From positions 1,619-65,618 of IMG/VR virus record IMGVR_UViG_3300048670_001253: a DNA stretch of 64,000 bases; one strand, 5' to 3'. The notes below the pieces were generated by a model. It was not told where the DNA came from, did no database searches, and worked only from the letters and a program-made list of their open reading frames with translations. This DNA comes from a virus. Taxonomy: Duplodnaviria > Caudoviricetes. Position 1 is the first letter of the stretch. Every line of letters starts with the position of its first letter. The position numbers and the translations under genes were made by a program. This document shows positions 48,355 to 62,626 of this stretch, piece after piece.

Positions 48355-48699
48355 AAAACCCTATTAAACTTTCAAAAATTATACCCGCCGGATTTTTTTG
48401 AAAACCGTTTTTGAAAAGTTATAGGTTTATAGGGGTAGGTTTAAAGTTAATTAAGTATAACTTTGAAAAAAAATAGAAAGCCCACTAGAAGTTCGTTAAA
48501 AAGTTCATGGGCTTGGAAAAAAGAAATAAAAAGGAAAAGAAAAAGGGCGTAGTGGCGCTAAACCGGTACCCGTACCAGAGACCATACCCAGGTTTTTTCG
48601 GTTTTAGTTTTTCCGTTTTTAACTTTGTAAAAGTATACCGTACCTGAAACCATTTTGGTTTCTGAAAGTTAACCGTACTAGAAATGATCCACAAAACTA

Positions 48700-48880
48700 A
48701 ACGGGGGGAGTGTCAGTGGGGGGATATAAGAATCCCCGTGACCATTGGAGCCCCACCACTCAGGCCAGCCCCAGTCGGCGGGGTGCGAGCGGTCGCCTTG
48801 CGGCCCCACCGACACCTCCGGGTCACTACCCAGCATGGCATGATCGTCCCGGACTCGCAGCGCCCGGTTATAGGGATGTA
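48700..48880 (-). ncRNA. candidate GC-rich structured RNA
   Basis: 10-bp GTCGGTGGGG/CCCCGCCGAC stem (U-G wobble on the minus strand), GCAA tetraloop, GTGACC/GGTCAC stem; downstream of motif 48943; no convincing ORF. Confidence 0.45.
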
Positions 48881-49054
48881 AGGAACGATCAACCCTTGGG
48901 GACACGACGATGAGCAACTACTATCAGTCAGTGGATTCCTTAACCGTACCAGAGAACATAATGCGATGTTTATAATGGACTAATTATAATCTCTAGTACG
49001 GTTGGTGGAATTAAAACCGAAACCCTCCCCCGTAGGGGAGGGCCGGTCGATCAT

Positions 49055-49291
49055 TCACAGATGGTTAGCGTACTTGTAGTCAGTTCCATCTTTCGATACA
49101 ACGGCAAGACAATCGGTTGGAAAGTTCACAACAACTGGGATGCCGAAAATCTTGATAACAACCGGAGCAGTTCCGGGAATATTCTGGGCAGACGATCTGC
49201 CATTCGGGGCGACGTAGTCCATTCCCACAACAACGCCGGTAAAACCCTCAAACGTGCCTTCGACGATGCTAACAACGGTGCCGATGATCAT
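49055..49291 (-). CDS. stand-alone NusG/RfaH C-terminal KOW-like protein
   Basis: GTVVSIVEGTFEGFTGVV...VVIKIFG.P..V; GGAG RBS 8 nt upstream of ATG 49291. Confidence 0.7.
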   Translation of the reverse strand: MIIGTVVSIVEGTFEGFTGVVVGMDYVAPNGRSSAQNIPGTAPVVIKIFGIPVVVNFPTDCLAVVSKDGTDYKYANHL

Positions 49292-49398
49292 GGTATTCAC
49301 TCCGCAAGTGGTGGTTGGTGTTACATCCCTAAACCGTACTAGAGACGATAATAATCAACCCATTAGGGGGGAGAGTTTTACCCCTCCCCCCTTTCGGG

Positions 49399-49872
49399 CT
49401 AGACGATCTGCCATTCGCACGCCACCTTGCTTGCCCCCTTGCAAGCCTGCTTGGGAAGTTGCTTCACAAGCTCCCGCTTCACGCTCTCGACGCCCTGCTT
49501 GACCTCTGTGACACGATCAGCCACAGACCCTACCGCAGACTCCCCGGTGACCAGAGCCGTTCTAATGCAGTCTACGAGCACCCCAGTGGCAAGGGGGCCA
49601 GTCGAACGCATAGCGACCAGATCGGCACGGGTGATTGTCTCTCCCCGATCCATCCGGGCGATCAGACTATCGAACGCAGCCGATGCCGTTTCCTGCCACA
49701 GAGCCACCGACTCCAACCACGGGATTGACGTTGTGGCATCCCGCTCGTAATCGTCGCCCACCTTCACGGTGCCGACGCAGCGAACCGTGAAATCGACCGT
49801 ATGATCCCCGGCCGGGATCGAATCCCGATCAAACTTGACCTTGCTCAGAGCCAGCATTTGAATGTCGTTCAT
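49399..49872 (-). CDS. hypothetical early protein
   Basis: own motif (49914), GGAG RBS, GC-rich codons. Confidence 0.75.
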   Translation of the reverse strand: MNDIQMLALSKVKFDRDSIPAGDHTVDFTVRCVGTVKVGDDYERDATTSIPWLESVALWQETASAAFDSLIARMDRGETITRADLVAMRSTGPLATGVLVDCIRTALVTGESAVGSVADRVTEVKQGVESVKRELVKQLPKQACKGASKVACEWQIV

Positions 49873-49932
49873 GGTTTCCATCTCCAAGGGTTTATCGTTC
49901 CTTACAAACCAAAACCGTACTAGAGGCTATTC

Positions 49933-50049
49933 TTACTGGTCGAGCCAGCTATGAATTGCGTTTCCGATTTCATAGGTTGTATAGCTAATAAACCCGCAGA
50001 AACTTAGCAGCCCGGCAAGTACGATCCAATCGTTGAGGGTGAGAAGCAT
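49933..50049 (-). CDS. 38-aa single-TM early peptide (not in ORF track)
   Basis: MLLTLNDWIVLAGLLSFCGFISY...; own motif (50090), AAGG RBS. Confidence 0.55.
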   Translation of the reverse strand: MLLTLNDWIVLAGLLSFCGFISYTTYEIGNAIHSWLDQ

Positions 50050-50105
50050 AGTAATAGTACCTTGTGGGGTGTTAGGTTCACAACTTTCAACCGTACCAGA
50101 ATCAA

Positions 50106-50270
50106 TCAATCGTAGTAATAATCGTTTACTACCCTGTCAACAAACTTGAATGTCTGGCAGAATAGGAACCAACTAACCGCCGATACCACTGTCACAAATC
50201 CAAAAACTACCATTAGGTGGGCGAAAATGTTGAACACAAAGCTAAAATCAGAATTGTACCAAGGCATCAT
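50106..50270 (-). CDS. 54-aa membrane early peptide (not in ORF track)
   Basis: MMPWYNSDFSFVFNIFAHLMVVFGFVTVV...; own motif (50301), GGAG RBS. Confidence 0.55.
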   Translation of the reverse strand: MMPWYNSDFSFVFNIFAHLMVVFGFVTVVSAVSWFLFCQTFKFVDRVVNDYYYD

Positions 50271-50349
50271 AAGGCTCCAAGGTTAGGTTTACAGTTCACA
50301 ACCGTACCAGAAAGTAAGGGGGGAGTTTGTTGTCCTCCCCCCTTACTGT

Positions 50350-50595
50350 TTACTTCCACCGCTTCATTTCTTTGTTAGCAGCGGCGACGATTGCTGCCTT
50401 TTTCCGGCGACCCTTCAGCTCTGCTTTCGTCTTGGGAATGTTGCTGCCGTTCTGCCGGAGGTATTTCAACCGGAGGCAAACCGCTGCCGGAGTTACCCCC
50501 AACTCCCGTGCTACGCTGGTCTGATTGCCACCATTGCTGAGATTCCGCATCACAACATTGACGAACGTTTCAACACTGACAGTCTGCCGTTTCAT
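50350..50595 (-). CDS. small HTH protein, divergent paralog
   Basis: GGNQTSVARELGVTPAAVCLRLKYLRQNG; AAAGGA RBS; motif 50636 lies inside the longer ORF-track call. Confidence 0.8.
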   Translation of the reverse strand: MKRQTVSVETFVNVVMRNLSNGGNQTSVARELGVTPAAVCLRLKYLRQNGSNIPKTKAELKGRRKKAAIVAAANKEMKRWK

Positions 50596-50661
50596 GGTTT
50601 TTCCTTTATTGTTATTATTCGGGCCACAGTTTACTACCGTACTAAAATCAACCGTCACTTA

Positions 50662-50865
50662 TCACCACTCATTCTTCGATGGTAACCCGTATGCTTCCGG
50701 GTCAAGTTTGGGGCCAAGCCCATAAGTATCAATTACGGGGATACCGGCCGCTCGTCGTTGATAGACATTGACAGCGGCGCCGACCAAATCAACCGCTTCA
50801 CTCTCGCTGATCAGCCCCTTTGCGTAACTCTTGATCGCCAGTTCGATTTCAGTAATGATGCTCAT
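50662..50865 (-). CDS. hypothetical early protein
   Basis: motif 50911, AAGGA RBS. Confidence 0.65.
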   Translation of the reverse strand: MSIITEIELAIKSYAKGLISESEAVDLVGAAVNVYQRRAAGIPVIDTYGLGPKLDPEAYGLPSKNEW

Positions 50866-50938
50866 TTTCTTGTTCCTTACTGGTTTACCGGGTCGTTCCT
50901 ACAACTCTAAACCGTACTAAAGACTATCCATACTTGGG

Positions 50939-51151
50939 TCACACGACCCCCGCCAAGTATGTTTCATACTGAGCAAGCAAATCAATCTTTTTAGCCTTAG
51001 GCTTGATTCCGGCCTCTGCAAGGATGCCCTTCACAATCTTTGCGACGTTTACTTTACTGTGCTTCAGCCCCTTAGTTTCGAGCTTAAGAGCACTCTTAAG
51101 AGCAAGCAGACGATACTTCAGAACATTTTCGCCGGTGATAACGGTGCACAT
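50939..51151 (-). CDS. hypothetical basic early protein
   Basis: motif 51188, AAGGA RBS. Confidence 0.7.
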   Translation of the reverse strand: MCTVITGENVLKYRLLALKSALKLETKGLKHSKVNVAKIVKGILAEAGIKPKAKKIDLLAQYETYLAGVV

Positions 51152-51254
51152 TTTTTTGTTCCTTAGTGGTTGGTTCTACGGTTCATTACCGTACCAGAGA
51201 CTAAGATTATTATTATAATCTCTGGTACGGTTTATTGCAGTTTGGAAAAGAGAC

Positions 51255-51461
51255 CTAGCCACTTGGGCCTAGGTCATAGTAACAGGGGGATTGATTTTCC
51301 AGCCGCTCCTCCTCCTCAAAGTTTGCTAGGTCGCAATAGCGAGTTGCGTCCGCTACCTTTTCAAACTTGAGACCCGTGTGCAACAGGCCGTGATTGGTAG
51401 AGTAGATATTCCAAAACCCATTCTCGTCACGCAGGGTGTAGTATTCGTTTTTCGGCATCAT
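51255..51461 (-). CDS. hypothetical early protein
   Basis: motif 51495. Confidence 0.6.
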   Translation of the reverse strand: MMPKNEYYTLRDENGFWNIYSTNHGLLHTGLKFEKVADATRYCDLANFEEEERLENQSPCYYDLGPSG

Positions 51462-51516
51462 TCAGTCCCAGAGGTGTTGGTGTTACAACTCTAAACCGTA
51501 CTAAAGACTATCCCGT

Positions 51517-51551
51517 GAACACCCCCGCCTGTTAGTTTGGCGGGGGTGTTC
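51517..51551 (-). terminator. GC-rich hairpin between cassettes
   Basis: GAACACCCCCGCC / GGCGGGGGTGTTC 13-bp stem right after the stop of 51564-51968. Confidence 0.65.
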
Positions 51552-51563
51552 ATTCCGGGGGGT

Positions 51564-51968
51564 TTATTCAGAAGCTAATGCCATTTTAACGGCATTTACC
51601 ATCTGCCCATACAAACTACCGGCAAAGTTACCACCACACATTTCTGCCAATTCCCGCTGGAAAGCGTGAGGGGTCATTGATCCCTTGCGATTACCCTGCC
51701 GGAATACTTCCGCCTTTGCCTTTACCTTTACAAAATCTAGACGGTGGTTCTGACGCTCTACGGTGCGATCTGGGGCCGTTATGCTAAACGTGCCATTGCC
51801 CGCCCGGTTAGTATAAACCACCCGCCAAATCTGATCCTGCGAAGCCAGAGAGTGTCGGATGGTTCCCTTGACCATCAGACCGCCAACCCTACGGAAAGTT
51901 GTCCCTTCCTCCGTCTCGACCGGATAGAACTTGACGGGGGCGGGAGCATCAACGATTTGCCACGGCAT
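51564..51968 (-). CDS. hypothetical early protein
   Basis: motif 52005, AAGGA RBS. Confidence 0.7.
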   Translation of the reverse strand: MPWQIVDAPAPVKFYPVETEEGTTFRRVGGLMVKGTIRHSLASQDQIWRVVYTNRAGNGTFSITAPDRTVERQNHRLDFVKVKAKAEVFRQGNRKGSMTPHAFQRELAEMCGGNFAGSLYGQMVNAVKMALASE

Positions 51969-52032
51969 TGTAAGATTCCTTAGTGGTGTTGGTTACAACT
52001 CAAAACCGTACTAGAGACTATCCTTAGAAGAG

Positions 52033-52058
52033 AGCCCCTCCGTTTTACGGGAGGGGCT
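52033..52058 (-). terminator. hairpin nearly identical to the one at 56871
   Basis: AGCCCCTCCGTTTTACGGGAGGGGCT; GTAA (GNRA) loop on the minus strand. Confidence 0.65.
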
Positions 52059-52063
52059 AAGGA

Positions 52064-52264
52064 TCAACCCGTGATAATCCGCAGAACTTCAGCGTTGAGC
52101 GGATCACGGACAGGGTCGAATTCGACCGGAACTTCGACTTCCCGCTGATTGTGGATAATGTCCACAATCGCATCGACCAGAACCCGCTCACTCACCGTGA
52201 AATGGCCCCGGGCGTGAATCTCTGCGTCCCGCTTCATTTCACGCTCAATCTTTGCCTTGTTCAT
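52064..52264 (-). CDS. hypothetical early protein
   Basis: motif 52306, AAGGA RBS. Confidence 0.7.
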   Translation of the reverse strand: MNKAKIEREMKRDAEIHARGHFTVSERVLVDAIVDIIHNQREVEVPVEFDPVRDPLNAEVLRIITG

Positions 52265-52321
52265 CGTTCGTTCCTTAGAGAAGGGAGTTGAACCACTGAG
52301 ACAAAACCGTACTAGAGAAGA

Positions 52322-52388
52322 TCGACCGCTAGGGTTGAACCTAGTTAGCTAGGATTGAACCTAGTTGAATCCCCATCGGGACGGTCGA
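52322..52388 (-). ncRNA. cloverleaf-like four-way-junction element
   Basis: 7-bp TCGACCG/CGGTCGA closing stem plus three hairpins, two being CTAGG-TTCAAY-CCTAG. Confidence 0.5.
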
Positions 52389-52554
52389 AAGATTGTTTAG
52401 CGTCCAGTGTTATTATCAATAATAATAGTAAGAATTCCGCTGCACAATCCAAGGAAGCACATCATGTTGAATACTCAAGTAAAGGAAAGTTAGTAACAAG
52501 CTCCCGGCTTCGACCGGTAGCCTTGAACCGTACCCACGGGAAACCCCGTAGGGC

Positions 52555-52588
52555 TCACCCCCCGGCCTTGTTGTTGGCCGGGGGGTGA
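52555..52588 (-). terminator. GC-rich hairpin after HTH paralog 1
   Basis: TCACCCCCCGGCC / GGCCGGGGGGTGA. Confidence 0.65.
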
Positions 52589-52600
52589 ATCTTCCTTACT

Positions 52601-52855
52601 TCACTCAACACCCAGGCTGGCGAGAATCGCAGCCGCCCGCTCTGCCGTGTTGCTCGTCCGACCGCCGCCTGCGAACCGGGGAATGTCAATCCCGTGCTTC
52701 TTGCGAAGCTGGCTCAGACGCACACTCACCGAACCCGGAACGATACCCAACTCAGTCGCAACATCATCGACACTACCACCGGCCCGCTGCGTCTTGATAA
52801 CGCAGGTCAGGAACGTCTCAAGATCAACACCCTTTTGTCCAACTTGGCGACCCAT
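52601..52855 (-). CDS. 84-aa HTH protein, paralog 1
   Basis: GGSVDDVATELGIVPGSVSVRLSQLRKKHG; GGAG RBS; motif 52934. Confidence 0.85.
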   Translation of the reverse strand: MGRQVGQKGVDLETFLTCVIKTQRAGGSVDDVATELGIVPGSVSVRLSQLRKKHGIDIPRFAGGGRTSNTAERAAAILASLGVE

Positions 52856-52946
52856 AGTAATCATCTCCTGCTTATAGTAACTCAACCCTAGGTTCCCGCT
52901 TGCCGCATCGGCTTGCTGTCGGAACAAACCCAAACCGTACCAAACT

Positions 52947-53147
52947 CTATCCCTTATTATGACACCGGATACAATCCCTGCGGATCATATTTGATTTAAT
53001 ATCGGTGAAAAAACTTTCAATATCGAGGAAGTTCTTATAGGAACTATCTTCAGCGAACTTCTTCACAGCCTCGATTAGCTTATCGGTCGGCTTCACAGTC
53101 TCAGCAGTGTAATAACCTTCCAGAACGTCCATATACTCTTTATCCAT
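52947..53147 (-). CDS. hypothetical early protein
   Basis: motif 53183, AAGGA RBS. Confidence 0.65.
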   Translation of the reverse strand: MDKEYMDVLEGYYTAETVKPTDKLIEAVKKFAEDSSYKNFLDIESFFTDIKSNMIRRDCIRCHNKG

Positions 53148-53195
53148 CGCTGGTTCCTTTGGTGTTACTTGAACAGTTCACTACCGTACTAGAGA

Positions 53196-53504
53196 CTAAA
53201 TCAGGTTCCGGCCTTTCAACCATTCGTATACAGTACCAGCAGCATTGTTGATCTTGATACCATCAAGAAAACAATCATTGATAATACTGATCACAACCAC
53301 TCTATTTTGATTTATATCAGCGATACTATTGCTAGTTGGTTCTTCCCACCAGCTTCCAAGTTCACAGAATTCCAGTTGTAGATATTCCAGCACCTTTTCA
53401 CGATACTGGTTTCGATTCTCAACAAGATTCTTTTTATTCTTTACTTTACGATTCTTGTTTTCAAAGAAATCGCTATAAAATCCATCGTAGAAGTTATTGT
53501 TCAT
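53196..53504 (-). CDS. hypothetical early protein
   Basis: motif 53527, GGAG RBS. Confidence 0.7.
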   Translation of the reverse strand: MNNNFYDGFYSDFFENKNRKVKNKKNLVENRNQYREKVLEYLQLEFCELGSWWEEPTSNSIADINQNRVVVISIINDCFLDGIKINNAAGTVYEWLKGRNLI

Positions 53505-53543
53505 CGTGTTCTCCCTTTGATGTTCAACCGTACTAGAACTGAT

Positions 53544-53744
53544 TTACTTTTTACTACTGGGGAAGTCGAAGTATCCCACAAGCCATTCTTTTCCTTCATC
53601 ATCAATCATGATTCTAGGACGATCCCTATAGGCGTTATATAGGTTGATCAGCCTGTCAACCATCCAGCATCCACTAAGAATCAAGAGATACACACTAGCA
53701 ATTGTGCTAAGATACATTGCGACGATGAAAATCGTAGTAGTCAT
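53544..53744 (-). CDS. small membrane early protein
   Basis: motif 53781; N-terminal TM segment. Confidence 0.65.
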   Translation of the reverse strand: MTTTIFIVAMYLSTIASVYLLILSGCWMVDRLINLYNAYRDRPRIMIDDEGKEWLVGYFDFPSSKK

Positions 53745-53793
53745 TTCTGTTTCCTGTTTTGGTGAATCTCACAACCCTTTACCGTACCAAAGA

Positions 53794-53976
53794 CTACATA
53801 TTGATCATCTGCCGGAGTTCATTATCAATGCTATGATTCTTTTCCATAGTTTCGATAATACTATTCAGTGTTTCACTAATAGTATTAAGGATCATATCGC
53901 CGTCGCCTTCCACATTACTATTGTCCACAAAATTCTGGAGCATCTTCAGGTTTTCAATTGTGTCCATTCTTTTCAT
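53794..53976 (-). CDS. hypothetical coiled-coil protein
   Basis: GAGG RBS; downstream of motif 54101. Confidence 0.55.
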   Translation of the reverse strand: MKRMDTIENLKMLQNFVDNSNVEGDGDMILNTISETLNSIIETMEKNHSIDNELRQMINM

Positions 53977-54294
53977 CCTCTTTGTTTTTTACAGGGAAAA
54001 CTAAATCACAAACAAACCAAGCACAGGCCATACCAACAGCCATGCCAATTAGAAAACTATTCCAATCCATATAAAGATCGAGCATCCTTGCCCCTTTCAT
54101 ACCGTACTAGAATTTATCAAAAGCGTCCCAGAATCCAACTTTATTGCCGTTAGAATCTCTAAGATTACCATCATCCCCAGGTTTAATATCAACTGGGATT
54201 TGATTTAGAACAACACGCAGTTCATTAGGGTTATCCTTGAAACTTGCGTTATCCATGTTTACTTCAACAACGATTTTCATAATTTGTTCCCGTA

Positions 54295-54519
54295 CTAGAA
54301 GGGATAATCCTCCGGCTGTTCCTGACTCTTGCTGTAATCTTCCTGCTGGTCGATATAGTTGTTTAGTTCCTGATCCTCGACCAATTCAACATATCGACTA
54401 CGTTCACAAACGATATTACGCTTCTTGAGAATCTTATAGATGATTCTTTCGGCGTTTGTAAGGTCAGCGATGCTGATACCGATGATAGCCCGTGCGATTT
54501 GTTCCAGTTCGGTGTTCAT
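54295..54519 (-). CDS. hypothetical early protein
   Basis: motif 54555, GGAG RBS. Confidence 0.65.
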   Translation of the reverse strand: MNTELEQIARAIIGISIADLTNAERIIYKILKKRNIVCERSRYVELVEDQELNNYIDQQEDYSKSQEQPEDYPF

Positions 54520-54567
54520 CGTTTTGCTCCGTGGTGTTGATCCTACAACTCAAAACCGTACCTGAGT

Positions 54568-54909
54568 CTATCGCACCATTACCGGCGCTTGGCAGATATG
54601 GATATTTGGGGGAATTGGTTGATCGGGGATATTTGGGTTCTTGCTATATTCAACAATCCCCTGCCGATCCATCCTACACCAATATGTTCCAGACGGATCA
54701 CTCCAATACTGGTAACTATTATCAAATCCCCTATACACGATATATTGCGGATCATTTTGATGCTTTCTTGCTTCCACAATATTGTGAACAACTGGGGCGG
54801 CTTCCTTACCGCACTGCAAACAAGCAACAATCAATCCGACAACTAAACTGGCAATTTGAAGATACAACATTTTTCCAATCCTTTGAATAATGTTTCGGGC
54901 TACAGGCAT
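54568..54909 (-). CDS. hypothetical exported protein (start probably downstream of 54909)
   Basis: hydrophobic segment IASLVVGLIVAC; motif 54912. Confidence 0.55.
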   Translation of the reverse strand: MPVARNIIQRIGKMLYLQIASLVVGLIVACLQCGKEAAPVVHNIVEARKHQNDPQYIVYRGFDNSYQYWSDPSGTYWCRMDRQGIVEYSKNPNIPDQPIPPNIHICQAPVMVR

Positions 54910-54917
54910 CTACCGTA

Positions 54918-55187
54918 CTAGACTTCATCCTCATCATCCCGGTCGCCAAGTTCACCATCATCATCCCAATCATCCTCTTCTTCCTCATCATCGTCATAAT
55001 CAGCATCATCATAATACTCGCCATCCTCATCACTATTCAGGCAAGCATCGCAGATGCTATACCGATTGGTGACGGGAAGGCGCTTGCCACAGGTGCAAAC
55101 CATATCCAACTGGTTTCCACTCTCATCGAACCGGGGGCAGCAACCCGGTTCATGGCCGCAACACGGGAAATCTTGGCAGTAAACCAT
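54918..55187 (-). CDS. Cys-rich (Zn-binding) protein with highly acidic tail
   Basis: CQDFPCCGHEPGCC, CTCG, CDAC, then an Asp/Glu run; GAGGAG RBS; motif 55228. Confidence 0.75.
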   Translation of the reverse strand: MVYCQDFPCCGHEPGCCPRFDESGNQLDMVCTCGKRLPVTNRYSICDACLNSDEDGEYYDDADYDDDEEEEDDWDDDGELGDRDDEDEV

Positions 55188-55293
55188 GACTGTTCTCCTC
55201 TTGAGTATTGGATCGGAACAACTCACTACCGTACCTGAGACAATCTTGTGGAAAATTATGTGAAGATTTACCCGGACTATACTATATAAGAGT

Positions 55294-55740
55294 ATGGATA
55301 AATTTCAAATAGGTTATTTGGCTGGAATAATAGATGGTGAAGGTTGTGTATATGTAAACAAAAGGAAACCTCACGGAAGAAGAAAAACTTTTGGATATGG
55401 TGTGAAAGTAGTTGTATCAATAACATCCTATAGTCTCGTGGAATGGTTTGTTACTAATGCAAGACTCACATCTATTCATCACAGATTACCAGAAGGTAAT
55501 CGTAAACCTCAATGGATGTGCACTTGGAATAATTCAAATGCAGAATGGATTTTAAATACTGTTCTTCCTCACTTGGTAATAAAAAAAGAGCAAGCAAAGA
55601 TAGGTTTAGAATTACTCGTTCATATGAGAACAACGCCTGTAGTAAGAGGGCAGTGTATATCCCCTGAAATTATCTCTTATAGAGATTCCATGAAAGATAA
55701 GATATCTTTACTAAATCGTCGTGGTAAACAAACTGACTAG
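55294..55740 (+). CDS. LAGLIDADG homing endonuclease (single motif, free-standing)
   Basis: YLAGIIDGEGCV, VLPHLVIKKEQA. Confidence 0.92.
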   Translation: MDKFQIGYLAGIIDGEGCVYVNKRKPHGRRKTFGYGVKVVVSITSYSLVEWFVTNARLTSIHHRLPEGNRKPQWMCTWNNSNAEWILNTVLPHLVIKKEQAKIGLELLVHMRTTPVVRGQCISPEIISYRDSMKDKISLLNRRGKQTD

Positions 55741-55940
55741 AAATCATCCCCACCGAAATAACCGTAATCTTCATCCAAACCAAATCCACAACTACGAAAC
55801 GTATCTGCGTCTGCTTCAACGTCAGTCATATTTTCCTCAAAATCATCCTCATCCTTATCACACTGAGAATCTATCTCGTGTTCTGCATCGGGATGATATG
55901 AGCAAGAATCTTCATCGGGAAAAACATCGTCTGGGTTCAT
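55737..55940 (-). CDS. very acidic small protein
   Basis: Asp/Glu-rich; AAGGA RBS; motif 55965. Confidence 0.7.
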   Translation of the reverse strand: MNPDDVFPDEDSCSYHPDAEHEIDSQCDKDEDDFEENMTDVEADADTFRSCGFGLDEDYGYFGGDDF

Positions 55941-56011
55941 GGTGTTTCCTTTGGTTAATTCACAACCGTACCAGAAAGAATATTGTATACCGGTTGTAAA
56001 TGGATCGACTT

Positions 56012-56068
56012 ATGATGATATGGGAATCGCACCCATACGTCGCTAGGACGTGCTTGTTTTTATCACCA
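56012..56068 (-). ncRNA. D-arm-less tRNA-like element
   Basis: TGGTGAT/ATCATCA 7-bp stem, ACGTC-CTAGC-GACGT hairpin, ATGGG-TGCGATT-CCCAT T-like arm. Confidence 0.4.
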
Positions 56069-56158
56069 CGATAGTTTTACGATAAGTGTCCGGTATTACG
56101 CACATTACCAACCACAAGTTACCCTGTGGCATCTATCCGACCCCTGACGCATTTATAT

Positions 56159-56294
56159 TGGCCCCGTGCTGGGAATCCAACCCAGAAGGAGAGCAGCATA
56201 AGCCTTCCCATAGCCAGGGTTGGCAACCTCGTACACCCATTAGATGCTGCGGCTGTTTGCTGGGCTATCTCTCCTTTGTCGGCAGACACACAGG
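56159..56294 (-). ncRNA. atypical tRNA-like RNA ending G-CCA with an enlarged anticodon arm
   Basis: CCTGTG/CACGGG acceptor-like stem, CTGGG-TTGGATT-CCCAG T-arm, ATAGC/GCTAT stem enclosing about 49 nt; motif 56313 just upstream. Confidence 0.45.
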
Positions 56295-56324
56295 ATGTTT
56301 CGTTGAATCCACACCGTACCAGAG

Positions 56325-56609: not shown

Positions 56610-56822
56610 TTACCGTACTGAATACAAAAAGCCGATTGTTTCTCTGTCCCAGCTTTTTCCTTTTAATTCTCTGATGTAATCTTCTGCCGCTTCTTTATTC
56701 GTATATTTAATTACGAATGGCTGTTTATAAACATCGCCTTTATTCGTCAATGGTTTACGATCCCTATAGATCACAAAATAACCATCCTCTTCTTTCACAG
56801 AATAGTCGCAGGTTCGTTTCAT
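56610..56822 (-). CDS. hypothetical leaderless early protein
   Basis: ATG 7 nt after TACGGT, no RBS. Confidence 0.7.
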   Translation of the reverse strand: MKRTCDYSVKEEDGYFVIYRDRKPLTNKGDVYKQPFVIKYTNKEAAEDYIRELKGKSWDRETIGFLYSVR

Positions 56823-56859
56823 AGTATTTACCGTACTAGATACTATACCACATTACAAA

Positions 56860-56896: not shown

Positions 56897-56927
56897 CGTA
56901 TGGCCGATTATTTAATCAGCCTTAACT

Positions 56928-57182
56928 TCACTCAACACCCAGGCTGGCGAGGATAGCCGCCGCCCGCTCTGCGGTGTTGCTGGTGCGGCCCGACCCCTCG
57001 AAGCGGGGGACGTTCGCACCATGCTTCTTGCGAAGCTGCGAGAGACGCACCGACACGCTGCCCGCCGTGATGCCCAGAGCATCGGCCACATCCTGCACCG
57101 ACCCACCAGCCCGCTGCGTCTCAACGACACAGGTAAGGAAACGCTCCAAATCGACACCCTTCTGTCCAACTGCACGACCCAT
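56928..57182 (-). CDS. 84-aa HTH protein, paralog 2
   Basis: 14 aa differences from paralog 1; AGGAG RBS; motif 57256. Confidence 0.85.
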   Translation of the reverse strand: MGRAVGQKGVDLERFLTCVVETQRAGGSVQDVADALGITAGSVSVRLSQLRKKHGANVPRFEGSGRTSNTAERAAAILASLGVE

Positions 57183-57306
57183 AATAATTAAACTCCTACT
57201 TTATACAACCCTTGTTGCCGTTTGCCGCACTGGCTCACCGTCGCAACATCCATCAACCGTACCAAAGAGCAAGTTACTCTGTTTTATTCCCTTTAGTTTC
57301 GAATAT

Positions 57307-57687
57307 TCATGGTTTATCGTCTCTAGTAAATGTATCCAACATTATATTCCTTAGCTCATTTGAAACTTCTTTAAGTTCCCTTTGTATTTCCTTCTTCCTT
57401 CTTGAAAGTTTTTCAACCTTCTCAGCTTTCAACTTCTTCACATTATTATCATACTTACTAATACACTTTTCCACAAGAATTAGCATACTTGGGCCTGTAT
57501 CAGAGCAGACTTCACCATATTCAAAATCTTTAAGTGTTACCCTATAACCACTCACATGATTAGTGATAACTACCTGTCTTGATAAACCTTCATTTAAAAA
57601 GGCTTTCATATTATTCGTATACTCGGTCAACGCACCAGTCTTTCCCGATCCCGAAAATGCCTTTATGAAAGTCTTTGTATTATTCAT
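57307..57687 (-). CDS. hypothetical protein
   Basis: 126-aa ORF, ATGA-coupled to the upstream ORF. Confidence 0.65.
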   Translation of the reverse strand: MNNTKTFIKAFSGSGKTGALTEYTNNMKAFLNEGLSRQVVITNHVSGYRVTLKDFEYGEVCSDTGPSMLILVEKCISKYDNNVKKLKAEKVEKLSRRKKEIQRELKEVSNELRNIMLDTFTRDDKP

Positions 57688-57860
57688 AGATTATCCAAAA
57701 GTTCTTCAAACTCATCTGGATCGCAATCAAATGAGTTATGGGTGTTTCGCTGGATTTCAATCTGTCGCACAATCCAGTCGATTTGATGGCGATCAATACT
57801 GTCGAAATAACCCCGATCCTGAATTTCCTTATTCTTTTCCATCTGCTTCTTGACGCTCAT
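57684..57860 (-). CDS. 58-aa hypothetical protein (not in ORF track)
   Basis: MSVKKQMEKNKEIQDRGYFD...; GGAG RBS; motif 57897. Confidence 0.55.
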   Translation of the reverse strand: MSVKKQMEKNKEIQDRGYFDSIDRHQIDWIVRQIEIQRNTHNSFDCDPDEFEELLDNL

Positions 57861-57913
57861 TATAAGCTCCCCGGAGGTTAGTTGCTTCTGTGCAAAACCG
57901 TACTAGAGAAGAA

Positions 57914-57994
57914 GTAAGGTGCTTCCCATTTTGACAACCAATCACTTTGATTGGTGGAGCTTTGGTATGGCCCACTTGCTGGGAAGCACCTTAC
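57914..57994 (-). ncRNA. candidate small RNA with its own promoter
   Basis: perfect 15-bp GTAAGGTGCTTCCCA/TGGGAAGCACCTTAC stem, internal ACCAATCA/TGATTGGT hairpin; begins 8 nt after motif 58003. Confidence 0.65.
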
Positions 57995-58173
57995 AACTAT
58001 CAACCGTACCAGAGACGATCAGGATTAAACTTCTTCCTTAACTGTTTCCATAACAATTAATTCTTCACTATAAGGAAGATTATCCAGAAAGTTATGTAAT
58101 GTTTCTGGAGTGTTATATGGGCCGTATTTAATTTGCCCTTGTTCATAATAAATGTGAACGTAAAACATTACTA

Positions 58174-58374
58174 TTATTTAGCACTTCTGTATTCAACTTG
58201 AATAGTAGAATTTCTACTAGCCATCTTCACAAAATTTGAAACACTATCCCAATCTGGACTAGAGTCGATATACAACTCTTTATTATCGTTTAACAAATAT
58301 ATTTCAAAACCACCTGATGGATACTCACCATCAACAAATGGTTTCTTTGTATTCACTACAACGTATTGTTTCAA
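58174..58374 (-). CDS. hypothetical protein
   Basis: overlaps the upstream stop (GTGA). Confidence 0.55.
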   Translation of the reverse strand: MKQYVVVNTKKPFVDGEYPSGGFEIYLLNDNKELYIDSSPDWDSVSNFVKMASRNSTIQVEYRSAK

Positions 58375-58610
58375 CGGTATGAATCCACAGGGTTATGGTG
58401 AATATAGAATGCACGGTGCCTAATATAAGATTCTGAGGCGTGTCTTAAAGTAGTTTCCGCCCGGAGCTGATTAGCATAGGAAGGATCGCTAGTATACTTA
58501 TCGGCCGCTTCCTTAAATTCACTCACATTTTCAAGATAGGTTTGATAATACATCTCGCTAAGACGCTCAAGAGTCTCAATATCCAGTCCGCTCGCAGTTG
58601 TGTCGCTCAT
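58371..58610 (-). CDS. hypothetical early protein
   Basis: motif 58646. Confidence 0.65.
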   Translation of the reverse strand: MSDTTASGLDIETLERLSEMYYQTYLENVSEFKEAADKYTSDPSYANQLRAETTLRHASESYIRHRAFYIHHNPVDSYR

Positions 58611-58669
58611 CTTTTTACCCTTTGGTGTTGGTGTTACGAAACGAAACCGTACCAGAGACTATCCCGATT

Positions 58670-59023
58670 CTATTCGAAACTCTTCAATAGGACTACGTTT
58701 GGAAGACTATTCCAAATATTGCTGGGGTATTCGCAACTATTGTTTAATATGGGTTCACCACTAATATACCAGACGAAATCTTTCTGGTATAGAATTCGTG
58801 CTTCACAAAATTTACGAAGGATACTATTCAATCTGCTCTTAGTGGTGCTTGTGGAGTATCCCTGATTATTGATCCTTACAGTCTGATCAGTAATCTCAGC
58901 AATATGGTGACCGAATAAAAATACATCAATCACATCCCCATTTACTTCAACCTTAGTATTGCTGCAAGAATAATTCTTTTTATTCAAGATTGCATGGATC
59001 ATACCTTGTTCAATCTTACGCAT
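58670..59023 (-). CDS. conserved phage early hypothetical protein
   Basis: MRKIEQ.M..AI, TSTTKSRLNSIL, YQKDFVWY; GGAG RBS; motif 59058. Confidence 0.75.
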   Translation of the reverse strand: MRKIEQGMIHAILNKKNYSCSNTKVEVNGDVIDVFLFGHHIAEITDQTVRINNQGYSTSTTKSRLNSILRKFCEARILYQKDFVWYISGEPILNNSCEYPSNIWNSLPNVVLLKSFE

Positions 59024-59170
59024 CTTTTTCTCCAAGAGAAGGTCGGGACAAACCACAACCGTACCAGAGACTAAATCATTTCTCTCTCAAAAATATTTTC
59101 CCAGTTTATAATAGTATATACCTATAGATTAACAATGACGTTAATCATGTTTTTTTAAAAGGAGTTTATT

Positions 59171-59623
59171 ATGAGTGCAACAACAACAGAAGGCACAGGT
59201 TTAGGAATGGCCCCTAACCAAGTATCTTTAACAGTAGCTGGCCCACATATCGTAGCCGCCGGAACAGTTAGAACGGGACAGCCAGGAGCAGACGGACAAT
59301 CTAATGACTGGTGGATTACAGTCGATCTAGATCAAGTATTACCTTTAAGCCCAAGTAATTATGCCGTAATGATTACACAAAGTGACGAATCAGGTCATTT
59401 AGGTGGCCCAGATGGTCAGAGATCAAACAACCCACCACATATCGAGAAATTCGTTAAGGTTAACGGGGATCGTTATAACTACTGGGGTATTGATGATGAG
59501 TTCGAAAGCTATGCTAATTGGAACAACAATGGTTTAGCTGGTTTCGTTGTCCACTGCGGACACCCTGACCCAAAGACTATTGATTATGTTGTCGTAAGAA
59601 CCGGTTTTTTAAGAACTAACTGA
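59171..59623 (+). CDS. hypothetical protein, late-type transcription unit embedded in the early array
   Basis: AAGGAG RBS, upstream TATAAT/TATATA, own terminator. Confidence 0.8.
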   Translation: MSATTTEGTGLGMAPNQVSLTVAGPHIVAAGTVRTGQPGADGQSNDWWITVDLDQVLPLSPSNYAVMITQSDESGHLGGPDGQRSNNPPHIEKFVKVNGDRYNYWGIDDEFESYANWNNNGLAGFVVHCGHPDPKTIDYVVVRTGFLRTN

Positions 59624-59649
59624 ATTTAACTAAAAACACTTTTGGTGTT

Positions 59650-59681
59650 AACCCCAAGACTAACCCTCTTGGGGTTTTTTA
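59650..59681 (+). terminator. intrinsic terminator
   Basis: AACCCCAAGA/TCTTGGGGTT stem plus T-tract. Confidence 0.85.
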
Positions 59682-59821
59682 TTATACCTTCCTGATTATC
59701 CTATCGTATTCTTCTATCAACTCCAAAGCAGAGATATTATATTCTTCTGCGTAGTCCCTTGCTTTATCCTTGTTTGGACTCAGCATACTCATTGGAGAAT
59801 TTAAAGTTTTAAGAATAAACC

Positions 59822-60052
59822 TTATACTTTGTTCTTTTGAGAGATCTGCCAATTTTTATGCTCCACAACTACGTCAATGTTATTACGAAGAAGATTATCA
59901 GGCGCAGTATCACAATACAAACTAATCATCTCAAGAATATCATCAAGACTATTCCTAAGAAGATTATCATTGGTTAAACTCTTTGAATAAGAAAGTTTAG
60001 CAGCAATCTTACAAAAGAGTAGTGCATCTTCCTTGTCCATAGAGCCTACCAT
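59822..60052 (-). CDS. hypothetical protein
   Basis: downstream of the HTH gene in the same unit. Confidence 0.55.
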   Translation of the reverse strand: MVGSMDKEDALLFCKIAAKLSYSKSLTNDNLLRNSLDDILEMISLYCDTAPDNLLRNNIDVVVEHKNWQISQKNKV

Positions 60053-60267
60053 TGTGGCACCTTTGCTCCCTTAGCACGAAGTTTATGGCACCGCTGCCTT
60101 ACTGCTTGAGGACTAATCCCCAATTCATTTGCAACGCTAATACTGTTTCCACCGTTCTTAACGGCTTCCACAATAGCTTTAAGAAAAACATCAAGACTGA
60201 TTCTTTTGTTCTTCTTAGGAAGATCGTCGTTATCGTCGTCATCAAAACTGAGTTCAATATCAAACAT
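60046..60267 (-). CDS. small HTH protein, divergent paralog with acidic N-terminus
   Basis: ISLDVFLKAIV...GGNSISVANELGISPQAVRQRCHKLRAKG; GGAG RBS; motif 60297. Confidence 0.75.
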   Translation of the reverse strand: MFDIELSFDDDDNDDLPKKNKRISLDVFLKAIVEAVKNGGNSISVANELGISPQAVRQRCHKLRAKGAKVPQW

Positions 60268-60313
60268 CTATTCTTTCTCCGTGGTGACAACCCAACACCG
60301 TACCAGAGACGAT

Positions 60314-60514
60314 TCAAAGACTGGAAGTTTCCTCGTCCCTTTGCTCTACCGGACTTTGCCACTCATCTTTTAACTGCCCATAGTATAACTTTTCAATCCA
60401 TACTTCTGGGCCATGTTTATTTCTGGCAAATTTAACAGCATCCCATTCACTATATGCTGATACATAGTCAGCTATACGATTATTCTTCCAAACCCGCCAA
60501 GTATGTTTTTCCAT
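60314..60514 (-). CDS. hypothetical protein
   Basis: TATAAT just upstream. Confidence 0.55.
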   Translation of the reverse strand: MEKHTWRVWKNNRIADYVSAYSEWDAVKFARNKHGPEVWIEKLYYGQLKDEWQSPVEQRDEETSSL

Positions 60515-60553
60515 TCCCCTATTATAATTTAATCTGGGGTTATTGTCAAGGAT

Positions 60554-60748
60554 TTAATGTCCACTAACAATATCTTTTATAGCGGCGCTACACTCTTGAA
60601 TGTTAAATCCATTATCCCATGCTTCGAATACTGTACTCTCAATAACTTCGTTATCCCAATATATTTCGTATTCATAATATTCAAGATCATAATACTCTTT
60701 TACTCGAGCATAATAATCAGTGAATTCTTTTTTACTTCGCATCGTCAT
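60554..60748 (-). CDS. hypothetical protein
   Basis: coupled ORF. Confidence 0.5.
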   Translation of the reverse strand: MTMRSKKEFTDYYARVKEYYDLEYYEYEIYWDNEVIESTVFEAWDNGFNIQECSAAIKDIVSGH

Positions 60749-60945
60749 ATGCGTTTTCGTGTGTAGAAAGCGTGCTCTTTGGCTGAGTCCCTACGTTCTA
60801 GCATACTATCTGCCATAGAGTAAGCAATCACACTAATCTCATCAATCTCAAAGGCTTGAGATTGTGCAGTCATAATAGCCTGCATGGCTAGTCCGGCAAA
60901 ATAATCTCTGAGACTAATGTGACTATTATCTTTATCTTGTAACAT
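60745..60945 (-). CDS. conserved phage hypothetical protein (LRDYFA motif)
   Basis: ISLRDYFAGLAMQA...AYSMADSML. Confidence 0.75.
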   Translation of the reverse strand: MLQDKDNSHISLRDYFAGLAMQAIMTAQSQAFEIDEISVIAYSMADSMLERRDSAKEHAFYTRKRI

Positions 60946-61320
60946 TTAGACTCCACTCTTAAGAGCCCGATTAGTAGCAATCTTCACACCAAGTTTACGA
61001 TTAAACATTCCACCACTAGGAACATTAAACTTACCCCTCAGATCACGACCATCAGGAGTAGTAATCTCCACAAGTGTAAAGCCACCTTTGCAACTAAGTT
61101 CCCAAATTCCCAGGCGAACATTATTGTATTGTTCATATTCACGCTTGCTCATGATCTCATGAACAATCTCTGGGAAGTTAAGAGTGTTATTATAAACCCG
61201 TCCGTGATAAACACGAACCTTATAACCAGTCTTACGAAGAACTTCTACGTTTGGCATTTCAATTTTATTCATAGTGGTCATTGGTGTGTTCCTATATTTA
61301 CCAAGGGCGGGCTGGATCAC
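60946..61320 (-). CDS. hypothetical protein (start probably about 61280)
   Basis: GYKVRVYH, KGGFT.VEI, FNRKLGVKIA. Confidence 0.65.
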   Translation of the reverse strand: MIQPALGKYRNTPMTTMNKIEMPNVEVLRKTGYKVRVYHGRVYNNTLNFPEIVHEIMSKREYEQYNNVRLGIWELSCKGGFTLVEITTPDGRDLRGKFNVPSGGMFNRKLGVKIATNRALKSGV

Positions 61321-61483
61321 GACGATGTTTCTTTTTCTTATTCATCACAGAGTTTACAATATTGGTTTTAACCTTATTGAACTCTTTGATTGCTTCTGGA
61401 AGTTTCTCTTCAAACTTTGAAATCACAAAGTCTTTTTTATTATTAAGCCAACTCTTATTAAACCAGTCAGGCAACGGATTCAT
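61298..61483 (-). CDS. hypothetical protein
   Basis: TAATG coupling to the upstream ORF. Confidence 0.5.
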   Translation of the reverse strand: MNPLPDWFNKSWLNNKKDFVISKFEEKLPEAIKEFNKVKTNIVNSVMNKKKKHRRDPARPW

Positions 61484-61806
61484 TATAGATCCCTCTTTCT
61501 ATTTACATCAGTAACAGTGTGATTATACTCTATTCCAGATTCTCTGCAATAACGGCTGACATAATAATAACTGGTCAAACGATCAAGAAAACCATTATCA
61601 ACAAGCCACTTACTGGCATTGTATTCCCATTGATCCCCATACCCATAAGTAAAAGGAATCTTATGAACCATACGGTCGTTCACCCAGATTTCACAAGTAT
61701 GGTAGGTATTACCATAGCTACGTTGAAACCAGCGACGAGCAAGAAGATAGATCGTCTTAACTTCAACAAAACTGGTCAGGAGTTTTTCTTTTGTGATTGT
61801 TTCCAT
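61483..61806 (-). CDS. hypothetical leaderless early protein
   Basis: ATG 8 nt after TACGGT (61815); RWFQRSYGNTYH, YGYGDQW. Confidence 0.75.
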   Translation of the reverse strand: METITKEKLLTSFVEVKTIYLLARRWFQRSYGNTYHTCEIWVNDRMVHKIPFTYGYGDQWEYNASKWLVDNGFLDRLTSYYYVSRYCRESGIEYNHTVTDVNRKRDL

Positions 61807-61830
61807 GACTGTTCACCGTACCAAAGGGAA

Positions 61831-62115
61831 TGCGGCCTCCGGGAATCGAACCCGGAACCTAGAGGTTAACGTACTACTTCAGTTTTCACTGCCCTTGCGG
61901 TTTGTAGTCTGGACTTTACCTTCACCATTGTTTTTCAACTTTAGGTGCTGCCCGTCAAGTCTCTACACCTTCCTAAAATTAAAAAATAATCTTAGGCTTG
62001 GCTCGGTATTAGCAGTTAAGCCTTCACCGAATTTGAGCAGTTCTACTCCAAAAGTTTCCTTTTAGGCACTCTTAATTTCAAAAGCCCCTTGCTCTACCAA
62101 TTGAGCTAAAGCCGC
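61831..62115 (-). tRNA. tRNA-Lys(UUU) split by a group I intron (exon 1 62115-62082, exon 2 61869-61831); CCA not encoded
   Basis: spliced 73-nt cloverleaf GCGGCTT...AGGGG-CT-TTT-AA-CCTCT...CCGGG-TTCGATT-CCCGG-AGGCCGC-A. Confidence 0.92.
61870..62081 (-). ncRNA. ORF-less group I self-splicing intron, 212 nt, between anticodon positions 34 and 35
   Basis: P1 with U34-G wobble (CTT|TT pairs with AAGAG); core elements AAATTCGGTGAA, GCTAATACCGAG, GTAGAGACTTGACG, AAGGTAAAGTCC; terminal omega-G at 61870. Confidence 0.9.
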
Positions 62116-62203
62116 AACTAAAACACAACCGTACCAAAAACAAAACAACCCGTCAACCCCCTCCCCTCCCCACATTAAAGGGGAGGGGAGAAGATTAAAC
62201 AGA

Positions 62204-62458
62204 TCACTCAACCCCAAGAGAGGCGAGGATAGCAGCGGCCCGCTCCGCAGTATTACTAACCCGGCCCGAACCCTCAAAGCGAGGGATATTCAGACCATGC
62301 TTCTTGCGAAGCTGTGAGAGACGAACCGACACCGAACCGGGAACAATTCCCAGAGCATCGGCAACATCCTGCACACTACCACCAGCCCGCTGCGTCTCAA
62401 TGACACAGGTGAGAAACTTCTCAAGAGAAACACCGGCCTGTCCAACTGCACGACCCAT
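62204..62458 (-). CDS. 84-aa HTH protein, paralog 3
   Basis: 9 aa differences from paralog 2; AGGAG RBS; motif 62526. Confidence 0.85.
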   Translation of the reverse strand: MGRAVGQAGVSLEKFLTCVIETQRAGGSVQDVADALGIVPGSVSVRLSQLRKKHGLNIPRFEGSGRVSNTAERAAAILASLGVE

Positions 62459-62626
62459 AATAATTAAACTCCTGCTTTAAACAACCCTGACTTCCCGACT
62501 CACGTTGAATCGGGCTTAACCCTAAACCGTACCAGAGAGAAACATCAACCTGCGAAACTCTGATTAACTACTTTGAACTTCCTTTTTTAACTTCGTCCGA
62601 AGTTACATGAATTAAACCAACTTTGG

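Follow-up and report, generated by a model that had tools for sequence, protein, structure and literature searches.

Promoter-early stem-loops (PeSLs), which unite a strong sigma-70-like promoter with a stem-loop, have been described in the T4-type phages RB49/phi1, T4/PST and KVP40/nt-1 (Arbiol et al. 2010, PMC2839356; Comeau et al. 2014, PMC4122927). Here we describe a repeated signal with the core GTACGGT in 64,000 nucleotides of DNA from a tailed virus (Caudoviricetes; IMG/VR record IMGVR_UViG_3300048670_001253, positions 1,619 to 65,618; hereafter the window), where it heads an array of small genes and RNAs. Phages also have promoter classes of their own that are served by the host core polymerase together with a phage sigma or appropriator, including the late promoters of T4 (TATAAATA, with gp55/gp33), the T4 middle promoters (MotA box, with AsiA) and the classes of SPO1 (gp28, gp33/34); a phage sigma is likewise known from phiEco32/7-11-type phages. 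The promoters of the single-subunit polymerases of T7, T3 and SP6 are contiguous, span ~20–30 bp and extend into the first transcribed bases. Judging from its position, orientation, conservation, leaderless spacing and pyrimidine/purine start-site signature, the GTACGGT motif is most likely a promoter.

The window covers nearly all of a linear 65.6-kb virus record rated 14% complete (G000, or G0). It encodes baseplate, tail-fibre-like and tape-measure-related proteins, a UvrD-type helicase and a CCA enzyme, as well as tRNAs, and this gene content therefore identifies it as a fragment of a huge tailed phage. Scanning IMG/VR for exact matches to the array form yielded only isolated chance occurrences, and relatives were found instead through two early proteins (85–90% identity). 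Two of them, G001 (G1; 323 kb, 64% complete) and G002 (G2; 251 kb, 50% complete), are 90–97% identical to each other where shared. A more distant clade member, G003 (340 kb, GC content 48%), has ~33 proteins in common with G001, and a further one, G008, is 533 kb long and rated 100% complete.

Distribution and geometry of the motif

The window contains 41 copies of the heptamer ACCGTAC (GTACGGT when read on the minus, coding strand), where 2.1 would be expected (maximum of 7 in 100 shuffles). Our motif scan placed exactly 35 co-oriented copies on the plus strand within 48637–62532, in agreement with the count given in the original prediction; two further array copies are inverted (48996 and 51225), and two GTACGGG variants are located at 48569 and 54289. 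With a 21-nt weight matrix, 36 minus-strand sites scored at least 14 bits, every one of them inside the array. The handful of copies reported ahead of the array turned out to be of two kinds: those at 2783, 7728 and 30348 are without the upstream extension and are chance 7-mers, and the copy at 17289 is a full motif before a plus-strand gene. The array consensus is gATaGTCTCTrGTACGGT, followed ~8 nt downstream by a weaker TTGTAAC (T-GTAAC). Each of the seven core bases carries 1.6–2.6 bits and the 11-nt upstream extension is conserved, with zero information 18–23 nt upstream; the earlier claim of no conserved −35 element is thus borne out.

Copies follow each other at a density of one per ~380 nt. 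Among the 37 array sites, 26 precede an open reading frame (ORF) led by a Shine-Dalgarno sequence, with leaders mostly of 22–48 nt, and four precede a leaderless ORF. The other seven have no ORF and comprise the tRNA-Lys, a hairpin RNA, a 320-nt ORF-free stretch, the copy at 52527 and three tandem copies at the array end. The ~40 array ORFs encode 38–162 aa and nearly all are without a Pfam match. Strong hairpins (≤ −20 kcal/mol within 75 nt upstream) were found at 8 of 36 sites, and hairpins of ≤ −12 kcal/mol at 31% of sites vs. 20% of random windows. The picture of self-contained cassettes, each with a GC hairpin, consequently applies to about a quarter of the units and not to most of them, so that promoter plus hairpin describes a minority.

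Most sites lie between genes, in the orientation of the gene downstream, and the sole full copy on the other strand (17279–17295) also faces its own gene and is conserved in G001. Where opposite-strand genes (59171–59623 and 55294–55740) interrupt the array, the next minus-strand gene has its own copy (59058 and 55228), and in G1 copies lie in divergent intergenic regions (52628 and 39023/39074). Such regions, and those after opposite-strand genes, are places in need of a new promoter and support the promoter reading. Several copies also stand directly behind terminator-type hairpins.

Over 161 sites in three genomes, the spacing between motif and first ORF has a bimodal distribution, with 16 sites at 7–8 nt, none at 9–18 nt and the rest at 19 nt or more. 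All 16 ORFs located 7–8 nt after GGT begin with ATG and are without a Shine-Dalgarno sequence, which is the expected result of leaderless mRNAs beginning at the A of the ATG. The spacings listed in the original prediction are correct, at 7 nt (ATG at 56822), 8 nt (56603 and 61806), 8 nt to the small RNA stem and 12 nt to the tRNA-Lys 5' end. Pyrimidines occupy position 8 after GGT in 77–89% of sites and purines position 9 in 89–92%; since such a pyrimidine/purine step is the usual signature of an initiation site, it marks the ninth base as the start. The stem of the small RNA begins at that same base and the tRNA 5' end 4 nt later. We thus infer that transcription would begin at the ninth base after GGT.

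Table 1 Motif copies of the window and the units that follow them (minus-strand sites in the order of transcription)
Feature	Position	Strand	Associated unit
Whole array	48569–62532	−	37 co-oriented copies before ~40 small genes, one tRNA and several units without an ORF
Motif	62526–62532	−	67-nt leader, then helix-turn-helix (HTH) paralog ORF 62458–62204 (84 aa)
Motif	62128–62134	−	12 nt before tRNA-Lys(UUU) with group I intron (Rfam match 61894–62091)
Motif	61815–61821	−	8 nt, then leaderless ORF 61806–61483 (107 aa); next ORFs, to 60554, without a motif of their own
Perfect sigma-70 consensus, TTGACA-17-TATAAT	60521–60549	−	Other promoter class; ATG 6 nt on; ORF 60514–60314 (66 aa)
Motif	60297–60303	−	ORF 60267–60046 (73 aa, HTH), then ORF 60052–59822
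Motif	59058–59064	−	Directly after opposite-strand gene 59171–59623 (+); then ORF 59023–58670 (117 aa, Kyano_Gp96 family)
Motif	58646–58652	−	ORF 58610–58371 (79 aa) and two more small ORFs
Motif	58003–58009	−	8 nt before ORF-free hairpin RNA 57994–57914 (fold z = −6.1)
Motif	57897–57903	−	ORFs 57860–57684 (58 aa) and 57687–57307 (126 aa)
Motif	57256–57262	−	73-nt leader, then HTH paralog 57182–56928 (84 aa)
Motif	56830–56836	−	Behind terminator hairpin; 7 nt, then leaderless ORF 56822–56610 (70 aa)
Motif	56612–56618	−	8 nt, then leaderless ORF 56603–56325 (92 aa)
Motif	56313–56319	−	ORF-free ~320 nt (56306–55985); beginning of stretch conserved in G1
Motif	55965–55971	−	ORF 55940–55737 (67 aa), not in G1 or G2
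Motif	55228–55234	−	Directly after opposite-strand gene 55294–55740 (+); then ORF 55187–54918 (89 aa)
Motif	54912–54918	−	TAG of the motif is the stop codon of the preceding gene; then ORF ending 54568 (~100 aa)
Motif	54555–54561	−	ORF 54519–54295 (74 aa)
Variant GTACGGG	54289–54295	−	8 nt, then leaderless ORF 54280–54107 (57 aa); G2 ortholog has a perfect motif at equal spacing
Motif	54101–54107	−	Small ORF ending 53954
Motif	53781–53787	−	ORF 53744–53544 (66 aa)
Motif	53527–53533	−	ORF 53504–53196 (102 aa)
Motif	53183–53189	−	ORF 53147–52947 (66 aa)
Motif	52934–52940	−	Long leader, then HTH paralog 52864–52601 (87 aa)
Motif	52527–52533	−	Behind strong hairpin; no ORF of ≥30 aa after it
Motif	52306–52312	−	ORF 52264–52064 (66 aa)
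Motif	52005–52011	−	Behind hairpin; ORF 51968–51564 (134 aa, 85% identical in G1 and G2)
Motif	51495–51501	−	ORF 51461–51255 (68 aa), not in G1 or G2
Motif (51188–51194) with inverted partner (51225–51231)	51188–51231	−	16-bp hairpin (z = −8.2 at 51180–51240); then ORF 51151–50939 (70 aa)
Motif	50911–50917	−	30 nt identical to the copy at 51495; ORF 50865–50662 (67 aa)
Motif	50636–50642	−	ORF 50595–50350 (81 aa, HTH)
Motif	50301–50307	−	Behind hairpin; ORF 50270–50106 (54 aa)
Motif	50090–50096	−	Small ORF ending 49933
Motif	49914–49920	−	ORF 49881–49399 (160 aa, 89% identical in G1 and G2)
Motif	49333–49339	−	Behind hairpin; ORF 49291–49055 (78 aa, weak KOW match)
Motif (48943–48949) with inverted partner (48996–49002)	48943–49002	−	Then ORF-poor, GC-rich ~240 nt (48700–48940)
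Three tandem motifs (48672, 48637, variant 48569)	48569–48678	−	Array end; read into ORF-free AT-rich stretch with terminator-like hairpin
Isolated full motif (GTTTCTTTCTGGTACGGT)	17279–17295	+	70 nt before gene 17366–17905 (+); orthologous copy at G1:217095

Some units of the array (Table 1) have features of their own. The arrangement at the array end is matched in G1 at 184143–184275 by four tandem copies, and the ORF-free stretch of ~300 nt is conserved (48355–48678; G1 184143–184884); this stretch may represent a small RNA, or an origin at which transcription primes replication as in T7 or T4. Adjoining this end, the gene at 47938–48354 (+) specifies a SET-domain protein (E 7e-14). At two sites of the window (51188–51231 and 48943–49002), and likewise at no fewer than three sites in G003, an inverted motif is located 20–40 nt upstream of the forward copy, and the resulting long, perfectly paired hairpins could be terminators, divergent promoters or regulatory elements. 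The ORF-free unit at 55985–56306 (−) contains T-arm-like segments (GGTTGGATTCCCAGC and GGGTGCGATTCCCAT); it gave no Rfam match, and its fold falls short of significance (z = −0.6). The small HTH proteins form a family with members at 62204–62458, 56928–57182, 52601–52864, 50350–50595 and 60046–60267 (−), of which three have conserved 5' leaders of ~70 nt; further members occur outside the array in G001 (at 71.4 and 146.6 kb). With regard to base composition, GC content is ~33% up to 48 kb of the window and 41–48% in the array (48000–56000 region), and G001 has a milder rise at its array, to 39–41%. An origin of the GC-rich cassettes from a GC-rich relative such as G003 is unsupported, as the arrays have almost no proteins in common.

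Conservation and cassette turnover among relatives

The signal is equally one-sided in the close relatives, with 74 forward and 2 reverse copies of GTACGGT in G001 and 2 forward and 60 reverse copies in G002, compared with 9–15 per strand for a reversed-pattern control. In G001, ~39 copies are found in a 16-kb array collinear with that of the window and ~33 more are spread over 33–153 kb before plus-strand genes, and the structural regions are without the motif. The genes headed by these copies encode, among others, an AAA+/RuvB-like ATPase, a DNA ligase, a GP88-family protein and a HAD phosphatase. An early host-takeover region, as first proposed, hence does not describe the sole role of the signal, given that the same signal heads replication and repair genes in relatives. 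The G001 consensus is sharper (aGTTTCCyTCyGGTACGGTtg), and the 18-mer of the G1/G2 form was recovered from three records only out of 2.9 million viral contigs. At 13 syntenic sites shared by G0 and G1, the 7-base core is 100% identical, compared with 42–70% for the flanks.

G003 was not enriched in GTACGGT. It carries 60 one-strand copies of tTAGGTCcAGTGTACCCTAGtGGGTGTaAC in a 28-kb array of small genes, that is, a different spelling (TGTACCCT) with the layout unchanged. Common to G003 and the window are an upstream (T)AGGTC/(A)TAGTC, GTAC, three lineage-specific bases (CCT vs. GGT) and T-GTAAC. The start-site pattern of G003 is shifted by one base: all 61 sites have a pyrimidine at +7 and 59 of the 61 a purine at +8, and its leaderless ATGs stand 7 nt from the motif. 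A promoter that co-evolves with a phage-encoded reader would be expected to look like this, with a shared layout and a private spelling.

The original prediction had viewed the array as a set of shufflable cassettes. The window array is collinear with those of both G001 and G002, and no reordering was seen, which refutes this part by the criterion set beforehand, namely that an invariant cassette order in relatives would count against it. Gain, loss and replacement of cassettes were observed, with breakpoints at the motif. About 10 of the ~40 window ORFs have no counterpart in G1 or G2, and G001 and G002 differ by 14 indels or replacements in 17 kb. No more than 15 nt separates a motif from 15 of the 28 edges of these events, compared with 3.8 expected and at most 12 in any of 5000 permutations; at least one edge is at a motif in 10 of the 14 events, and both edges are in five. 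In several cases the short allele has one motif copy and the long allele two flanking copies. The tRNA-Lys locus differs in all three: a group I intron interrupts the tRNA in the window; the tRNA of G001 is intron-less and accompanied by an additional cassette that lies between duplicates of a hairpin-motif-leader joint; and G002 has a different tRNA-Lys and an opposite-strand gene. These comparisons support PeSL-like gain and loss at the motif and do not support reordering. Exact identity between pairs of motif copies is mostly 16–24 nt, which is short for homologous exchange, so that the exchange mechanism can only be surmised.

The intron in tRNA-Lys(UUU) (61831–62115, −; Rfam 53 bits) is absent from the G001 ortholog at the same place (G1 170407–170480). 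Elsewhere in G001, beside another tRNA (G1 90567–90760), stands a homologue of the intron with 80% identity over 268 nt (Rfam 60 bits), which suggests that this group I intron is mobile among phage tRNA genes. The G001 array further contains tRNA-Ser(ACU) (G1 172326–172414) and tRNA-Glu (174364–174438) cassettes that the window does not have, and tRNA genes are therefore among the exchangeable units. A reading of a G1 tRNA as an amber suppressor was dismissed, as ARAGORN calls it tRNA-Ser(ACU).

Database searches gave few clues to the affinities of this phage. Its baseplate wedge protein has 294 relatives in IMG/VR, one of them in G003, and its helicase had distant matches only (23–27% identity). 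Comparison of the array with isolated phages by blastn returned nothing useful, a host search with the CCA enzyme among bacterial genomes gave no match, and a literature search for the motif returned primer matches only. The sole hint on affinities or host is the 117-aa early protein (58670–59023, −), which matches Pfam Kyano_Gp96 (E 1e-28), a family named after T4-like cyanophages.

Candidate readers of the signal

The GTACGGT class is one of at least three promoter classes in this phage (sigma-70-type, GTACGGT and ATATATA) and covers early/middle functions. Near-consensus sigma-70 promoters include the 12/12 match at 60549–60521, kept at 11/12 in G001 and G002, and a second site in G0 inside ORF 46195–47472; the perfect TTGACA-17-TATAAT promoters therefore indicate a host that uses canonical sigma-70 promoters. 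In the 25–186 kb block of G001, matches of at least 11/12 number 21 on the forward strand vs. 4 on the reverse, and sigma-70-like matches within the array are at chance level (36 vs. 34.2 expected). At three sigma-70-type promoters (G1 86177, G1 119172 and G0r 31251) the ATG stands 6 nt after the hexamer, i.e., from the seventh nucleotide; the perfect promoter at 60549–60521 likewise has its ATG 6 nt away, and its G1 and G2 orthologs 9 nt away. Upstream of late genes, (A)TATATA(T/C) occurs at 33 of 144 genes in G001 (2.5 expected) and 15 of 45 in the window (1.6 expected). It is probably a late promoter class, reminiscent of the T4 late TATAAATA. In the window this element occurs before genes within positions 1–48400 and also precedes the plus-strand ORFs 59171–59623 and 55294–55740.

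We regard the following explanation, taken as a whole, as probable. GTACGGT would be the core of a phage-specific promoter class that in the window drives ~30 small protein genes (four of them leaderless), a tRNA and several small RNAs, all in separate short units, and that in relatives would drive replication and repair genes as well, making it an early/middle class. The likeliest reader would be the host core RNA polymerase, redirected by a hypothetical phage-made specificity factor, because no phage polymerase was found in the clade and the core is fixed within the lineage and respelled in a distant one. As a side effect, the same 13–20 nt at every gene start would let cassettes be gained, lost and replaced at the motif.

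A number of observations weigh against this explanation. Sigma70_r2 had no match at E ≤1 in G000, G001 and G002 (records 14–64% complete), and neither tblastn with the G003 sigmas nor a hidden Markov model of G003-type sigmas recovered a sigma from the three. They also had no MotCF match (MotA) and, for AsiA, a single sub-threshold match in G002 (E 0.019, 13 bits). Given that G001 seems to hold the whole early block, the lack of a sigma, MotA or AsiA gene makes the proposed phage factor hypothetical in this lineage. In addition, both TACGGT and the TACCCT of G003 keep the T-12, A-11 and T-7 of the −10 hexamer, the predicted start site is deduced from spacing, and the clustering of indel edges might in part be due to selection that keeps units intact, or to alignments breaking off at a conserved island.

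Other searches for a reader concerned the same genomes and their clade. Sigma-70-family proteins are encoded in G003, G004 and G008–G010 (G008 has two such genes), and a search of IMG/VR with the sigma alignment returned no contig of the G000–G002 lineage, in which Sigma70_r4 matches are confined to small HTH proteins. No conserved bases corresponding to a MotA box were seen around −30. The small HTH paralogs themselves were rejected as readers (model pLDDT, a predicted local distance difference test score, of 68; generic winged-HTH/LysR DNA-binding matches only, E 0.05; family not in G003, which shares the layout). Genes behind near-consensus sigma-70 promoters had no informative Pfam match, and the first gene of the G1 early block (196 aa) is beta-rich and not sigma-like, with no PDB match. 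A sigma-54 reading was also set aside by eye: TGGTACG resembles TGGCACG, but the downstream TTGT is 4 nt too far and many copies have TAG and not TGG.

The original prediction took TACGGT to be an unusual −10 box. The hexamer fits TAnnnT, and TACCCT retains the same T, A and T; G1 and G2 read YGG-TACGGT, G0 has A or G in that place, and G003 reads TG-TACCCT without the spacer base. The predicted start is the ninth nucleotide after the hexamer T (eighth in G003), as compared with the seventh for sigma-70-type ATGs, and this distance together with the conserved 11-nt extension leaves a −10 box plausible only. These same bases would suit a promoter read by the host holoenzyme without any phage factor, through the primary sigma in the manner of extended −10 promoters or through an alternative host sigma. 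The G two bases upstream in G1/G2 copies, as in TGn, the clear use of host sigma-70 promoters elsewhere in the phage (12/12 consensus matches included) and the failure to find a phage sigma in the G000–G002 lineage point in this direction. We nonetheless consider it unlikely, in view of the high information at all seven core bases, including three that primary sigma reads weakly, the conserved upstream extension, a spelling that varies between clade members (GGT vs. CCT) and a predicted start 9 nt after the T, compared with 7 nt for the beginning of the ATG at three sigma-70-type promoters that the phage itself carries. A promoter that is G/C-rich at −10 and devoid of a −35 should, moreover, be very weak for primary sigma alone. 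A promoter for a phage RNA polymerase, single-subunit or divergent multisubunit, would account for a long contiguous conserved stretch (~−26 to +5) that includes the start-site bases T-GTAAC, a T7-type layout, and with lineage records only 14–64% complete its gene could lie in the unsequenced part or be too divergent to recognise. However, no Pfam RNA_pol (T7-like) or RNA_pol_Rpb1_2 match was obtained in G000–G003 or G008–G010, a result for which control genomes cannot validate the RNA_pol model; the complete-rated 533-kb G008 is thus also without a match, and a DxDGD motif is missing from every frame of G0, G1, G2 and G3. G009 gave one weak RNA_pol match, but the 4407-aa ORF concerned is homologous to tape-measure proteins, and the match found no support in PDB or PHROG. 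On balance, we judge a phage polymerase to be quite improbable. The contiguous GTAC-core signal, with its lineage-specific spelling, might alternatively be read by a specificity factor of a kind not yet described. One relative seems to include the complete early block and yet has no detectable gene for a sigma-70-family protein, MotA/AsiA or a polymerase. Such a new kind of factor is a possibility that we hold only tentatively; if true, a large clade of huge phages (294 related IMG/VR contigs) would redirect host transcription by a new mechanism.

Two further explanations would give the motif a function other than initiation. It might be a processing site at which an endoribonuclease cuts long transcripts 8 nt downstream, creating the leaderless mRNAs and RNA 5' ends. 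The fixed 8-nt distance to ATGs and to the small RNA stem also fits a measured cleavage, and many copies have no upstream terminator, so that read-through transcripts would include the motif. We find this very hard to reconcile with copies right behind strong terminators or after opposite-strand genes, where no sense transcript arrives from upstream for processing, with the single reversed copy that faces its own gene, with the lack of a consistent RNA structure at the motif, and with a pyrimidine/purine step that is the classic signature of initiation. It is more improbable still that the motif serves primarily as a recombination site for cassette capture and shuffling, similar to an integron attC, with a secondary promoter role or none. 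The clustered indel breakpoints, the alleles with one and two flanking copies and the extra G1 cassette between duplicated joints are what such a site would produce. Nevertheless, neither the array ORFs nor their neighbours revealed a recombinase or integrase domain, the motif does not form an imperfect palindrome and the three relatives keep their cassettes in one order; conserved replication genes spread over 120 kb are headed by the motif as well, and a strict spacing to start codons would be meaningless at a recombination site. A phage-specific promoter class remains our preferred explanation, with gain and loss of cassettes as its by-product.

Comparison with known systems

To our knowledge, huge phages are known almost solely from metagenomes, and the timing of their gene expression is essentially unmapped. 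The signal provides a sequence-level handle on one temporal class in such phages: it marks ~70 transcription units in a relative and predicts exact start sites, the set of leaderless mRNAs and the small genes and RNAs that would be co-expressed. The same short element is also where accessory genes come and go. If no ordinary sigma factor is involved, its reader could reveal a new way of taking over the host RNA polymerase.

Compared with phage promoter classes served by the host core polymerase (T4 late and middle, SPO1), the signal likewise has a private consensus without a host-type −35 and forms one temporal class beside host-type promoters. It differs in that no sigma, MotA or AsiA homologue was found in the lineage fragments, that no box is present at −30, and that the conserved stretch is longer, contiguous and takes in the start site. 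The T7-type promoters share with it a contiguous conserved sequence that runs into the first transcribed bases and a lineage-specific spelling on a shared layout, but no polymerase gene was detected in the clade members examined, including one rated complete. Integron cassette arrays are set apart by the absence of a recombinase domain from the array ORFs and by a motif that is not palindromic. The signal works like a private phage promoter class but shows the full set of defining features of none of the T4 late or middle, SPO1 or T7-type systems.

PeSLs of T4-type phages are the closest system described so far. In both cases, a short regulatory element recurs ahead of numerous small genes, most of them ORFans, within a plastic part of the genome; where close relatives differ by an insertion, deletion or replacement, the ends of the event coincide with the element; and some copies are fused to a terminator hairpin. 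The element described here differs in having the core GTACGGT and neither a −35 nor a TATAAT, a strong hairpin at only about a quarter of its copies, a higher density and a presence before replication genes outside the array. The PeSL idea would in this way be extended from T4-type phages to another promoter type and a much larger phage group; the style of genome organisation is already known in phages, and the signal itself is new.

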